Part shown: piece after piece, positions 3,613 through 19,019 of the stretch
Layout of the letters: each line of letters begins with the position of its first letter
How positions within the stretch are numbered: the stretch's first letter is position 1
Assembly: GCA_002269645.1 (NCBI GenBank)
Contig: NIVC01000104.1
Coordinates: 248,001-312,000 of the forward strand
Direction of reading: 5' to 3'
Source of the DNA: Macrostomum lignano
Taxonomy: Eukaryota
Length of the DNA: 64,000 nt
The notes under the pieces: model-generated
What the model saw: only the letters and a program-made list of their open reading frames with translations
What the model was told of the DNA's origin: nothing
Databases searched by the model: none
Made by a program: the position numbers and the translations under genes

Positions 3613-6600
3613 ATGCGAGCCCTACCAGTAATTATAATCATTGCCTGCGGGATCTTGACTGGTGAGCTCTGAACTGATATGATATAGTTCGCATTGAATT
3701 TTTTTTCTTGCAGACTGAGTCAATCAGAAGAATCTAATTAATGAAAATTTAAAGTTATGTATTAGTCAGTACCAGACTCCCTCACGCAGCCGCTCATCCC
3801 AACCCCCCCCCACGCCAGTCTCAGCTTCCCTCACGCAGCCGCTGATCCCAAACCCGCCCCACCAGTCCCAGCCTCCCTCACGCAGCCACTCATCCCAAAC
3901 CCGCCCCGCCAGTCCCAGCCTCCCTCACGCATCCACTCATCCCAAACCCGCCCCGCCAGTCCCAGCCTCCCTCACGCAGCCGCTCATCCCAAACCCCCCC
4001 CCCACGCCAGTCCCAGCCTCCCTCACGCAGCCGCTCATCCCAAACCCGCCCCGCCAGTCCCAGCCTCCCTCACGCAGCCGCTCATCCCAAACCCGCCCCG
4101 CCAGTCCCAGCCTCCCTCACGCAGCCGCTCATCCTAAACCCCCCCCCCCACGCCAGTCCCAGCCTCCCTCACGCAGCCGCTCATCCTAAACCCGCCCCGC
4201 CAGTCCCAGCCTCCCTCACACAGGCGCTCGCCAGCTGCAGCCGCTTCATCAACTCCTCCGGCCCAGTCCTGCTCGATCCGACCGTCAGCAGCCTCATCAT
4301 CAGCGAGCCCAGCTCAGCCTCCATCCAAGACTGCCTGCTCAGCTGCTGGTCGAGGCGCTGTGCGGCAGTCAGCCTGCTGCGGGCCAGCCGCGTCTGCCAG
4401 CTGCTCTTCGTCGAGGACGCCTCGCGGACTGCCGGACCGCCGGGCAGACACGCGTGGAGGTCGCTGGGATCCGAGGCCGGCGCCGAGGTGTGGAAGGCGG
4501 TCGACATCGACAGCGTCGTCGAGTCGAGGAGGCTCAACATCACGCACGAGTTCTCAAGTGAGACCAGTCCCAAGTTCTCATTCTCATGCCAGCTCACTCT
4601 CATGCCAGCTCACTCTCATGCCAGCTCATTCTCATGCCATCTCATTCTCATGCCAGCTCATTCTCATGCCAGCTCATTCTCATGCCAGCTCATTCTCATG
4701 CCAGCTCATTCTCATGCCAGCTCATTCTCATGCCAGCTCATTCTCAGCTCAGCAACTCAGCTGACCCCGCTGACCCCCACTGACTCCCAGACTCGAGCTC
4801 GGGCCGCAGCGGCTCCATCCAGCAGCTGACAGTCGAGCTGACCGGCTGCTACCGAATCGAGGCCCGGGGCGCTGCAGGCGGCTCCAACAGCTTCGCAGAC
4901 ACAGCTGGCGGCAGCGGAGCCTCGATGTCGGGCCGCTTCAACCTGACTGCCGGCGTCCGGCTGTCGGTTTTGGTCGGTCAGGCCGGCGGACCAGCCGTCG
5001 ACGGCAACTGCGGCGGAGGCGGCGGCGGCGGCAGCTTCGTGTTCGTCGGCGGCGTCGGCGGTCGCCTTCTGGTCGCCGCGGGAGGCGGCGGCGGGGCGTC
5101 CCTTAGTCGAAATGGCAAGTGAAATTGCTTTGAACTGGCCTCCCAATGTGGAATGTGTTACACTTCTCCTTCTCGGGTTCTTGAAGGTGTTCCTAGAAAA
5201 TAGAACCCGCTGCTCCTAAAGAAGCTAGATAGCACCGCAGTACTACCTATCGATTTGCCTGAAAATGAACCTAAAACGTTAGCCGTGACTTGGTAGGGTT
5301 GCTGCCACCTTGGTGTGCGGACTCGACGCGTCGGCAGAGTTGTCTATCCGTCACCTGAAATAAAATTAACAAAAACGCTCGGAGCAAGGGCAAATCTGAA
5401 AATGTCTCGACAGTCGATCGTCTCAGTAGAATGCTGCTCGAACCTGAAAACATGAAAAACCTGAAATGAGAGACTAGAGCTCGGAGGAGGCTTTCCGAGT
5501 CAGCCACGATGCTCCGCGAGACGACGCAGTCTGGAGAAAAATGGCTCGCAGATGCTCCGTATTTATAGCCGAGCGGACCCCCAAAAGTCACGTGAGTTTC
5601 ATGCGGTAAGCGCGTGAAACTTCCTTATTTGGTCACTAAAATCATGCGAGCGACGCGTGATTCAAGTCCAACTTCCAAATAAGGCAAGCCTGTCACGCAG
5701 CAGTGGCGTGACTCAAGGTCAGTGGCCACGCACCGCGTGCGTGCACAGTCACGTGCTTATTCTGTGCTAAAAATAGAACTTGGGCGGATGAGTCATCCTG
5801 TTTACTCCCTCTAGGCAGCCCTTACACTCCGCGCGGATGAGTCATCCTGCTACGCCTCCTCAGCGCGTGTGGGAAGACATTGAGTGTGGCTGCCCGCGCC
5901 TGCTCAGGCGATGAGTCATCGGGCAGTAAACACTTAGGCCCAGCACAGGGTATATCTCTCATTTGATCAGGTGGACTGAGCTACTGTGCAGCAGCAGCCA
6001 GTCACTACAAATGCATGAGCAGCTCCAGGTGCACTTTAGTCAAGACACAAACCAAAGAAAACGGCTTTGAATTATCGCTTGCCGGTACTTTTTGACCTCT
6101 ACTCCACAGCCAGACGCACTGAATGAACTTAGGAAAAATACTAAAACTCTTTATGAAATGTAAGATAGATCTATGAAAATTTGCTGTGCCAGTGACATGA
6201 ACGCTCTTACTCCACTCAAGCATAATTAAACATACTGAAATAAAGTTTTAAGATATTCCTGCTGCAGGGATCGAGTGTCGGAAGCAGAATGAGAAAGTGA
6301 CCAACCAATAAAAGTAACATCTGCAGCTTGCAGGTGGGCTTTGGACACCCTGGTGCAACGCCTTCGGCGACATCGTCCCACCATCTGTGCATTCCCTTAT
6401 TCCCGAGCACATATTACATATAAGCTCCTACACAAGCTCACACAGACAGCTCACACAGCACTCGAATTTCCCGCGGGGCATTTATAATTAGTTCGAGACG
6501 CTTCTACGGGTTTTCGTTGCCATTGTTTTAATCGACCAGGCACTTCCGGTCAGTCAGGCCCCAACGGAAGCGACTCAACTTCTCTTATTCAATATGCCGG

Positions 6601-7024
6601 CTTTGGCGGCACCAACGGCGGCCCGGGGTTCAACGACCCCAGCAGGACCTCGGGAAACAGCTACCACGGAGGCTGCGGCGCCGGCTGGCTGGGCGGGCCA
6701 ATAAATCAGAGACTGAGCACTGATGACGGAGACGGCGGCGGCGGTCCCGCCGAAGGCTGGACTGGCGGCCTTGCCGGCTCCGGCAACACCGGCGTCGGCG
6801 GCTTTGGAGGAGGCGGTGGCGCCGGCGGCAGCGGCGGTGGCCGTCGAGGCGCCGCTGGCGCGGGCGGCGGCTTCAGCGGAGGCGGCGCGGGTCTCGGCCT
6901 GAATCACGCCGGAGGGGGCGGCGGCTCCGCCTGCGACGGCCTCGACTGCAGCGGCGTCACCGGCGGCAACAGCGGCAGCCAGCAGGGCCGGGTGGTGCTG
7001 CAGCTGGTGCCGGGGCTGTGCTGA
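3613..7024 (+). CDS. Secreted PAN/apple + ALK/LTK-type glycine-rich protein, paralogue B (4 exons, about 401 aa)
   Basis: Exons 3613-3661, 4210-4557, 4791-5114, 6540-7024; all introns phase 1; 1206 nt. Signal peptide MRALPVIIIIACGILTASLTQALA; PAN-like cysteines (QDCLLSCWSRRCAAVS...VCQL); glycine-rich domain GSIQQLTVELTGCYRIEARGAAGG...LVGQAGG...GGGGGSFVF...AAGGGGG. No TM segment or kinase domain. Intron 3 requires a GC donor. Confidence 0.85.
3778..4209. repeat. 47-bp minisatellite (about 9 copies) spanning a duplicated 3' splice site
   Basis: Unit CCTCCCTCACGCAGCCGCTCATCCCAAACCCGCCCCGCCAGTCCCAG ends in CCCAG; its first 20 nt match the start of exon 2 at 18/20. Confidence 0.9.
4575..4750. repeat. 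16-bp minisatellite (TTCTCATGCCAGCTCA) in intron 2 of paralogue B
   Basis: Direct tandem copies. Confidence 0.9.
5156..6009 (-). mobile_element. Probable solo LTR (854 bp, Ty3/Gypsy-like 4-bp TSD) in intron 3 of paralogue B
   Basis: TG...CA termini (TGTTACAC at 5156; CACTACA ending 6009) flanked by an AATG direct repeat (5152-5155, 6010-6013). Internal TATA box and enhancer motifs are oriented on the minus strand. No gag/pol remnant is adjacent. Confidence 0.7.
5560..5918 (-). promoter_or_regulatory. Immediate-early-type promoter/enhancer: TATA, 2 CArG + Ets, 4 AP-1, MEF2, 2 GTCACGTG
   Basis: TATAAATA (5567-5560, minus); CCTTATTTGG 5623-5632 and CCAAATAAGG 5675-5684, each overlapped by ACTTCC; TGACTCA 5709-5715; TGAGTCA 5789, 5838, 5912; CTAAAAATAG 5767-5776; GTCACGTG 5587 and 5748. 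Confidence 0.75.
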
Positions 7025-17306: not shown

Positions 17307-19019
17307 TCATAACCGATTCAGCTTCCTCATGAAAGCCAAATCCGCCGGCCGATCCCGTTTCACAGCGCCTGCCGTGGCCAACGCGCTAGCCGAGTCCCGG
17401 CATTTATTATAGTGCATATGGAAGCGGTAAGCATCGGGATTGGGCAGCAACAGTTTGCACACCTGGCACTTCAATTTAGCCGGCAGGGGAGCAGTTGGTG
17501 TGCTCACTTTATCCAGCTTTTTCTGACAATCAGCTCTGTGCCTCGCCAGAGCGCCCGAGTTCAGAAACTTGTGCAAACAGACCGGACAGGTGGCAGCCAC
17601 CGAGCACACCGGAGCTCGTCGGCGATGCCTCAGCAACGCATCGGCGCTGGGAAAATCTCGGCCGCACAGGTCGCAGGCGAACGGCAGGCAGAGGCCGCGC
17701 GAGGTCATCCGGCAGTGCTGAGTCTCCAGATGGCGCACCAGAGCGTGTCGGGAGCGCAGCTGGCGAGCGCAGATCAGGCAGGTTACCGGGCTGTTCCTGG
17801 AGTTTTTTAGATGATTATAGTAAAGATTAGTGCCACAGCTAGTCATAGAATTTAGATTTGCTGATTTATCTGAAGCGATAGACCTTCAACTTCCCTGAAG
17901 CGATAGAACTTCAGCTTCTCTGAAGCCATAGAACTTCAGCTTCTCTGAAGCGATAGAACTTCAGCTTCACTAAAGCCATAGAACTTCAGCTTCTCTGAAG
18001 CGATAGAACTTCAGCTTCACTAAAGCCATAGAACTTCAGCTTCACTAAAGCCATAGAACTTCAGCTTCACTGAAGCGATAGAACTTCAGCTTCACTGAAG
18101 CGATAGAACTTCAGCTTCACTGAAGCGATAGAACTTCAGCTTCTCTGAAGCGATAGAACTTCAGCTTCAGTTACCCTGAAGTAATCGAGCTTTAACTCTG
18201 TTACTGCAAATATATAATCACACAAAAGGCTCACATGTGAGCAGTCTCCCGGTGTTCCCGAAGCGCCGACCTTGATTGATACGAACGAAAACACGTGGAA
18301 CAGGCGAATACTTGCTGGGGCTGGGGCGGCGACGGCGACTCCGGCTGAGGGGGATTTGGCGGCGGCGGCGGTGGCGGCGGAGGCGGCGGCGGTGCTGGAG
18401 CCGCCGGTTGCTGCGACCCCTGTCCAATAATGATAGTCGGAGTCGATCCGCTCTCTGGCAAACCTCTGGGCGCCTTCTCGGCAGGTGGAAGCGCCGGTTG
18501 CGGTTCATCGTGACTGACATCCGGCTGATCGAACCAAATCACTTGGTGACCTTTTGTTGTTGGCGGACGCGAAACCGGCGGCTGCTGCAGCGGTGGCGGC
18601 GGCGGAGGCGGAGGAGGGGCAAAACGGTGCAGTTGCAGTTGAACTAAACTTGACGCCTTTTGCGGCATTGGCGGCGGTGGAGGCGTCGGCGGTGGCGGGG
18701 GCGTCGGCGGTGGCGGCGGCGCAGGCGCTGTGGAGTAGCCAGACAGCAACACAGGATCGCCGTCCCCGTCGCCGCCAGCCCCGGCGTGAATGTCGATGCC
18801 GTTGTTAGCGCCGAAAGCGTCAACCGAGGCGGCGAATTTGTTCAACTCGTGCAGGTCGTCCATAGGCAGGTCGAGCAGTCGCTGCAGCTGTTCCAACTCG
18901 CCGTTAACCGATGACGATGAGAAGCCGCCGGACAGACAGGACAGGCCGGACAGGTCCAGCTTGTCCATGTCGGACATTGGCGGCAGATCAAAGGAAGATA
19001 GGAACAGATCGTCATCCAT
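17307..19019 (-). CDS. Pro-rich zinc-finger protein, 5 fingers (C2H2/C2HC), 2 exons, about 424 aa
   Basis: Exons 19019-18235 and 17796-17307 (GTGAGC donor, CTCCAG acceptor, phase 2). Fingers CSTC..HRETAH, CLIC..HLETQH, CDLC..HRRRAPVC, CPVC..HRADC, CQVC..HMHYNKC; acidic N-terminus and poly-Pro tracts. Confidence 0.85.
17870..18175. repeat. 25-bp minisatellite (TGAAGCGATAGAACTTCAGCTTCTC) in the zinc-finger gene intron
   Basis: Direct tandem copies. Confidence 0.93.

Follow-up and report, generated by a model that had tools for sequence, protein, structure and literature searches.

Stress-wired long terminal repeats (LTRs), including those of ONSEN and of the flatworm Macrostomum lignano, are already known, and in this flatworm they belong to heat-activated Ty3/Mdg4 LTR families bearing heat-shock elements (HSEs) (parts of PMC12801592). 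In mouse, AP-1 and Elk/Ets sites in the U3 of VL30, together with MEK activity, are needed for its transcription (excerpts of PMC5923290), and the LTRs of the deltaretroviruses HTLV-1 and BLV recruit Elk-1, Ets and AP-1 (sections of PMC7601775). Transcription of transposable elements (TEs) after injury is known in several regenerating animals, with passive chromatin opening and hard-wiring debated as its basis; in Hydra regeneration gypsy and other TEs are expressed, shared regulatory sequence being one possible cause (sections of PMC13465017). Here we describe a solo LTR in a stretch of 64,000 nucleotides of M. lignano DNA (contig NIVC01000104.1, positions 248,001 to 312,000; hereafter the window), whose U3 carries a dense cluster of motifs of the immediate-early type.

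The vertebrate c-fos, Egr1 and c-jun promoters assemble CArG, AP-1, MEF2 and TATA elements within a few hundred bases. The flatworm U3 has the same composition and compactness; in contrast to these promoters, where the Ets site flanks the CArG, its Ets cores and CArG boxes share 2 bp, and it is a transposon promoter whose rapid induction is a prediction. With the HSE-bearing LTRs of M. lignano it shares host, superfamily and the principle of an LTR with the cis-code of a host stress pathway, serving the element's own transcription (parts of PMC12801592), whereas its code consists of AP-1, SRF, MEF2, E-box and Forkhead sites and its induction is likewise predicted. Identity with the heat-shock families was considered and rejected: a canonical three-unit HSE occurs in 0 of 74 copies, and three strings of the family were not found in five supplementary files of PMC12801592. 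The family is probably among the non-HSE families catalogued in that paper, and an earlier M. lignano LTR classification cited there may describe it. VL30 class I U3 regions have the AP-1/Ets vocabulary in common with the flatworm LTR; they also carry Elk sites, and their transcription depends on MEK/MAPK (excerpts of PMC5923290). VL30, however, is a mammalian retrovirus-like element, while the flatworm LTR comes from an invertebrate Ty3/gypsy element, known from sequence alone, and has CArG, MEF2, Forkhead and E-box sites in addition. Deltaretroviral LTRs likewise read factors of the immediate-early pathway (sections of PMC7601775), but these viruses are exogenous and built on Tax-responsive CRE repeats, and the flatworm family has no known transactivator of this sort. 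The Hydra elements are transcribed after injury, and the sections on Hydra in PMC13465017 give no cis-element mechanism, for which the flatworm family is a concrete candidate. Literature searches, partly weak ('carg' also matched 'cargo'), returned no paper on AP-1, SRF or MEF2 sites in flatworm LTRs. LTRs tied to host stress or MAPK pathways being known, it is plausible that the novelty lies, at the family level, in an immediate-early-type LTR in a flatworm.

The features of the locus are as follows.

3613..7024, plus strand: host gene, exons 3613-3661, 4210-4557, 4791-5114 and 6540-7024; 401 aa
5152..5155, no strand: target-site duplication AATG, left copy; a single AATG in empty paralogues
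5156..6009, minus strand: 854-bp solo LTR, Ty3/gypsy; a private deletion of 51-52 bp falls between 5993 and 5992
5156..5530, minus strand: predicted R/U5, with five TTTCAG words; a 20-nt block is conserved near 5293-5312; boundaries putative
6010..6013, no strand: target-site duplication AATG, right copy

By every feature tested (ends, target-site duplication, empty site, primer-binding site, purine tract and gag-pol) the element is a Ty3/gypsy solo LTR. TG opens the 854 bp at 5156 and CA closes them at 6009, the latter position being the 5' end of the element; the primer-binding site of proviral copies comes after the end equivalent to 5156 and pol runs in the same sense, which gives the minus-strand reading. 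An 854-bp element with these ends and an AATG duplication had been proposed by an earlier, sequence-only reading of the window, and the proposal is confirmed. Each of the five loci matching over the full 376 bp of the left flank has a single AATG without an LTR, and three further, more distant paralogues are likewise empty. The insertion is therefore young and confined to a single locus within a redundant gene family, being absent from five of five close paralogues, the nearest two of which have flanks 95-97% identical to the window (3-5% diverged). The window copy is 4.9% divergent from its closest relative and carries 8 private positions. It is shorter than the typical family LTR (about 905-910 bp); its deletion near the 5' tip occurs in 1 of 74 copies and removes none of the listed motifs. 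It probably arose via LTR-LTR recombination and is likely near-neutral; the insertion itself is real and ordinary.

The host gene has an intact reading frame over its four exons, a hydrophobic N-terminus and an ALK/LTK-type Gly-rich domain. The LTR lies antisense within intron 3 (5115-6539, GC-AG), 41 bp downstream of the GC donor. This gene had been described as a PAN-Gly gene with the LTR pointing across exon 3: the exon number and the Gly-rich domain stand (Pfam ALK/LTK Gly-rich match in exon 3, E 2.8e-6), while the PAN assignment is unsupported, exon 2 giving no Pfam match for this domain. The exon joint 4557-4791 is bridged by contigs from two of four runs, with mismatches that point to paralogues. 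The donor of intron 3 is GC in the window and in paralogues L038, L040 and L042, and GT in L039. More Gly-rich paralogues lie in the window itself (1-480, about 18300-18700, 21700 and 55200-56900), and the ALK/LTK-Gly-rich family is expanded, with at least 40 genome-wide matches. Upstream of the host gene there are two MITE-like inverted-repeat elements, 1216-1881 and 2376-2907, with arms of 243 bp at 99% and 58 bp at 91% identity.

No AATAAA or ATTAAA was found on the element strand in the predicted R/U5 (5156..5530) of the window LTR, so antisense read-through at the locus is possible. On the strand of the host gene, the LTR contains an AATAAA at 5359-5364 (plus strand), a word carried by 46 of 74 copies, which may truncate the host transcript in intron 3. 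The 20-nt block 5293-5312 (minus strand) is nearly invariant family-wide, and two elements whose reverse transcriptase (RT) is 67% identical share it at 95% identity; it has 9 letters identical to the primer-binding site and is perhaps a second tRNA contact. Five acceptor-like TTTCAG words lie downstream of the predicted start (5259-5466, minus strand), a number reached by 0 of 2000 shuffles. The idea that they are selected splice or trans-splice acceptors found no support, and they are not significantly conserved: shared variants occupy 9 of their 30 columns against 139 of 362 others (p 0.44). Contigs of all four runs, presumed to be RNA, cover family LTR sequence with letters of other copies; among the contig pieces listed none crosses the LTR-host junction and 4988-5111 is uncovered, though such contigs cannot show strand, start or absence.

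The LTR belongs to a sizeable family. An exact 15-mer from its 5' tip occurs 166 times in the genome, against 0 for the reversed control, giving at least 166 LTRs, and the 40 scored candidates of 255 from a genome search with the LTR were all 90-100% identical. The 40 listed DNA matches together with the first 100 of the 166 LTR starts gave 120 loci, from which 14 partial copies, 2 without a start and 30 flank duplicates (among them six of the seven middle LTRs of tandem proviruses) were removed. The remaining 74 distinct near-full LTRs comprise 45 solo copies, each with a 4-bp duplication of its own, as well as 21 proviral and 8 unclassified copies, so that the predicted multi-copy gag-pol family with varied 4-bp duplications was sought and found. 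The family is young, as 13 RT matches are at least 94% identical and the paired LTRs of all nine elements tested are 97.5-100% identical. The primer-binding site matches tRNA-Leu genes in six of six loci scanned, and a purine tract precedes the 3' LTRs. Along the element, gag is followed by protease, RT, RNase H, integrase and an unannotated third ORF; Pfam matches for gag, RT, RNase H and integrase are above cut-off and that for protease is below it (E 0.005). The top protein matches are unnamed or M. lignano hypothetical proteins, and the two best among the named ones come from M. lignano. The 4-bp duplication, the long LTR and the third ORF allow no more than a guess at an affinity to the Gmr1/Osvaldo cluster. 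Gmr1 proper, in which integrase lies upstream of RT, was rejected, since integrase here follows RNase H.

Several other observations concern the proviral copies. Tandem proviruses with a common middle LTR, preceded by a purine tract and followed by a primer site, were seen at 7 of 120 loci (L007 on G000:C3790, L075 on G000:C100 and others). The first provirus candidate, on C1129, turned out to be a pair of solo copies that have the same flanks and enclose no gag-pol frame. The third ORF (L218:7774-8904) encodes about 375 aa, is proline-rich with a hydrophobic C-terminus and is open in the three proviruses inspected; it gave no Pfam match at E 0.05 and no usable Atlas match, and a J-domain was not detected in it. 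An opposite-strand RNase H fragment (L031:3687-4502) between pol and the third ORF of the C3790 provirus was not seen in the C100 copy and is probably a nested insertion.

The U3 motifs, named here after consensus sequences, are arranged as follows.

5560..5567 (reads 5567-5560), minus strand: TATA box TATAAATA, in 71 of 74 copies; shared variants in 0 of 8 columns
5587..5594, no strand: proximal E-box GTCACGTG
5619..5632, minus strand: proximal CArG 5623-5632 with overlapping GGAAGT 5624-5619
5671..5684, minus strand: distal CArG 5675-5684 (inverted) with overlapping GGAAGT 5676-5671
5709..5721, no strand: AP-1 5709-5715 overlapping a TCAAGGTCA site of putative ERR/NR5A type, 5713-5721, the latter in 70 of 74 copies
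5748..5755, no strand: distal E-box GTCACGTG
5767..5776, no strand: MEF2 site CTAAAAATAG; at least one MEF2 site in 69 of 74 copies
5789..5805, no strand: AP-1 5789-5795 with neighbouring Forkhead 5799-5805
5838..5844, no strand: AP-1 site
5912..5932, no strand: AP-1 5912-5918 with neighbouring Forkhead 5926-5932

All motifs listed in the sequence-only reading were recovered in place, over a total span of 359 bp, and three of the four AP-1 sites (5709, 5789, 5838 and 5912) stand in GATGAGTCATC context. To that list we add the two Forkhead sites (in 69 of 74 copies) and the one ERR/NR5A-type site, both picked after the conservation profile was seen. The GTCACGTG boxes are presumably E-boxes of the USF/TFE type, and the usual TATA spacing predicts a transcription start near 5535-5530. 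Among 2000 dinucleotide shuffles, the fraction reaching the observed count was 0 for AP-1, 0.001 for CArG, 0.002 for GTCACGTG, 0.017 for MEF2 and 0.057 for TATA. The Ets core alone is not enriched (its count is reached by a fraction of 0.23), and the additional columns of the overlapping GGAAGT carry shared variants in 0 of 8 cases. A ternary complex of the c-fos type is uncertain, since each Ets core lies across the edge of its CArG box, with 2 bp in common, rather than beside it; the arrangement may instead mean competition. Across the 74 copies, at least two CArG boxes occur in 63, at least four AP-1 sites in 61 and at least two CACGTG in 58.

The central evidence comes from the distribution of variants within the family. 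Variants carried by at least three distinct insertions (shared) arose in source elements that kept replicating, while those of one copy only (private) are mostly of post-insertion origin. Shared variants occupy 1 of 86 motif columns of the U3 against 100 of 347 others, and 0 of 432 shifted masks are as low; with the window copy excluded (73 others) and only those columns retained where it has the commonest letter, the contrast is 1 of 86 against 86 of 330. Private variants are at background rate, 0.535 per column in motifs and 0.509 outside. The p-values are nominal because the copies are related, yet the contrast is large. Since shared variants avoid the motif columns and private ones do not, the motifs were selected during replication of the element, which supports the view that the U3 cluster behaves as a selected and, judging from this pattern, functional promoter module. 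A cluster without function, produced by chance and local duplication, could draw on the fact that one CArG box is the exact reverse complement of the other and that the AP-1 sites 5789 and 5838 share a 15-bp context; the latter are probably local duplicates, and the AP-1 shuffle value is accordingly overstated. Shared variants, however, keep clear of the motif columns whatever the class, and the vocabulary is found again in sister LTRs that cannot be aligned, so that the chance origin is largely refuted by the selection test and strikes us as exceedingly improbable.

This recurrence was seen among nine related elements, whose LTRs cannot be aligned with the family LTR beyond 20 bp. Three of them (RT identity 78%, 78% and 68%) have 4, 12 and 4 sites drawn from the family vocabulary, and in each case 0 of 1000 shuffles reach the count; the other six carry one site each, with a motif set that was fixed after viewing. 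The MEF2 motif is the most widely shared site, present in the LTRs of eight of the nine. In the U3 of one sister family (L204:2429-3412, G000:C251) a CRE-MEF2 unit is duplicated and accompanied by three AP-1 and three Forkhead sites, and CArG boxes are absent; the 821 candidates from the genome search suggest that this family is the larger one. The selection test on it gives the same direction, though weakly: with 19 of 30 loci kept and 11 removed as 3' LTRs or duplicates, shared variants occupy 2 of 101 motif columns against 38 of 431 others (p 0.02, and 0.06 at a stricter threshold).

The host encodes SRF-like, Elk/SAP-1-like ETS, Jun-like and Fos/ATF-like proteins, as well as MADS genes that we take, from sequence features, to be of MEF2 type. 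The match of the Elk-like gene covered the ETS domain only, the SRF-binding B-box not being identified, and a search of the host with the Pfam Jun family gave no match while one with bZIP_1 did. Upstream of the Fos/ATF-like gene the order is MEF2-MEF2-AP-1-TATA. Only two of five host bZIP upstream regions clearly beat shuffles; as none of the five has a CArG and three or more sites are also found in 6 of 77 ordinary tiles of the window, this comparison is a weak, post hoc hint. The genome-wide excess of CArG+GGAAGT (985 matches against 228 for the control) was considered as a host promoter code and rejected: of 16 non-family loci inspected, none has the family layout and 6 fall in two other repeat groups, and the excess is thus not evidence.

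Given the LTR identity, the family structure, the empty paralogous sites, the conservation of motifs against shared but not private variants and the matching host factor genes, all observed directly, we favour, with moderate confidence, the reading that this recent solo LTR carries selected U3 motifs forming a MAPK- and calcium-responsive promoter of the immediate-early type, which would fire the element after injury or similar stimuli. Upstream of the TATA box sits a compact selected enhancer-promoter, which AP-1, SRF, MEF2, bHLH-ZIP and Forkhead factors would bind; so occupied, the U3 would respond to MAPK and calcium signals as vertebrate immediate-early genes and mouse VL30 do. Binding and inducibility are here predictions, and so is the payoff, a burst of transcription while stem cells proliferate and rebuild tissues including gonads, which in the regenerating gonads would open to new insertions a route into the germline. 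Such a route of insertions via injury and regeneration has been proposed for M. lignano, whose gonads regrow from somatic stem cells (parts of PMC12801592). On this analysis, wound wiring of the family is plausible.

Delineating an acute response from a cell type or state is more challenging. CArG, MEF2, E-box and Forkhead sites together also fit muscle, neuronal or differentiation enhancers, and the motifs, while selected for the element, could mark muscle, neurons, differentiating progeny or the embryo rather than the wound. Planarian gypsy elements show tissue-specific activation (sections of PMC8532177). The selection test is equally compatible with inducible and tissue-specific use, MEF2 is the site most widely shared among the related elements, and the contigs of all four runs cover family LTR sequence. 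Nevertheless, the four AP-1 sites, the CRE sites of the sister family and boxes of the CACGTG kind point to stimulus-response factors, unlike muscle-type E-boxes, and the MEF2 and AP-1 words recur beside a TATA box upstream of the Fos/ATF-like gene. We therefore regard specification of a cell type or state as unlikely, if still a serious contender to the immediate-early reading.

The consequences for the locus itself appear modest. The sequence-only reading had gone further, proposing that the family may seed wound-inducible promoters and that the window copy drives an antisense RNA across exon 3 of the Gly-rich gene. The number of LTRs, mostly solo, would be in keeping with co-option by the host. 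So would the window copy, which keeps the commonest letter at every motif, lacks a canonical poly(A) hexamer on the element strand and faces exon 3, the predicted start being about 420 bp away from the end of that exon. Solo copies, however, gain private motif mutations at a neutral rate (36 of 165 in motifs, expected share 0.199, p 0.56), so that no sign of constraint after insertion is seen among them as a class, in a class-wide test that a few co-opted copies would escape; and the insertion is missing from the close paralogues described above, which leaves both the seeding of wound-inducible promoters and antisense control of the gene unsupported. Use of the family solo LTRs as wound-inducible host promoters, with regulation of the Gly-rich gene by the window copy, is in our judgement highly improbable. 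At most, the window copy would fire incidental antisense transcripts toward exon 3.

If the immediate-early reading is extended from this family to its relatives, a flatworm branch of gypsy may have repeatedly rebuilt an immediate-early code (AP-1, MEF2, SRF, CRE and Forkhead) in unalignable LTRs so as to be transcribed upon wounding, during the expansion of the pluripotent stem cells that regenerate the gonads, making regeneration a door to the germline. We put this forward tentatively, as a possibility about which some doubt is in order; were it true, the LTR could serve a transgenic regeneration model directly as a wound sensor.

The variation within these copies identifies an LTR family selected to keep a dense stimulus-response code. 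LTR reporters work in M. lignano (parts of PMC12801592), and because the selected code occurs in such an animal, the hard-wired model of TE activation becomes directly testable. The family also offers a compact read-out of the motifs that matter to flatworm AP-1, SRF and MEF2.
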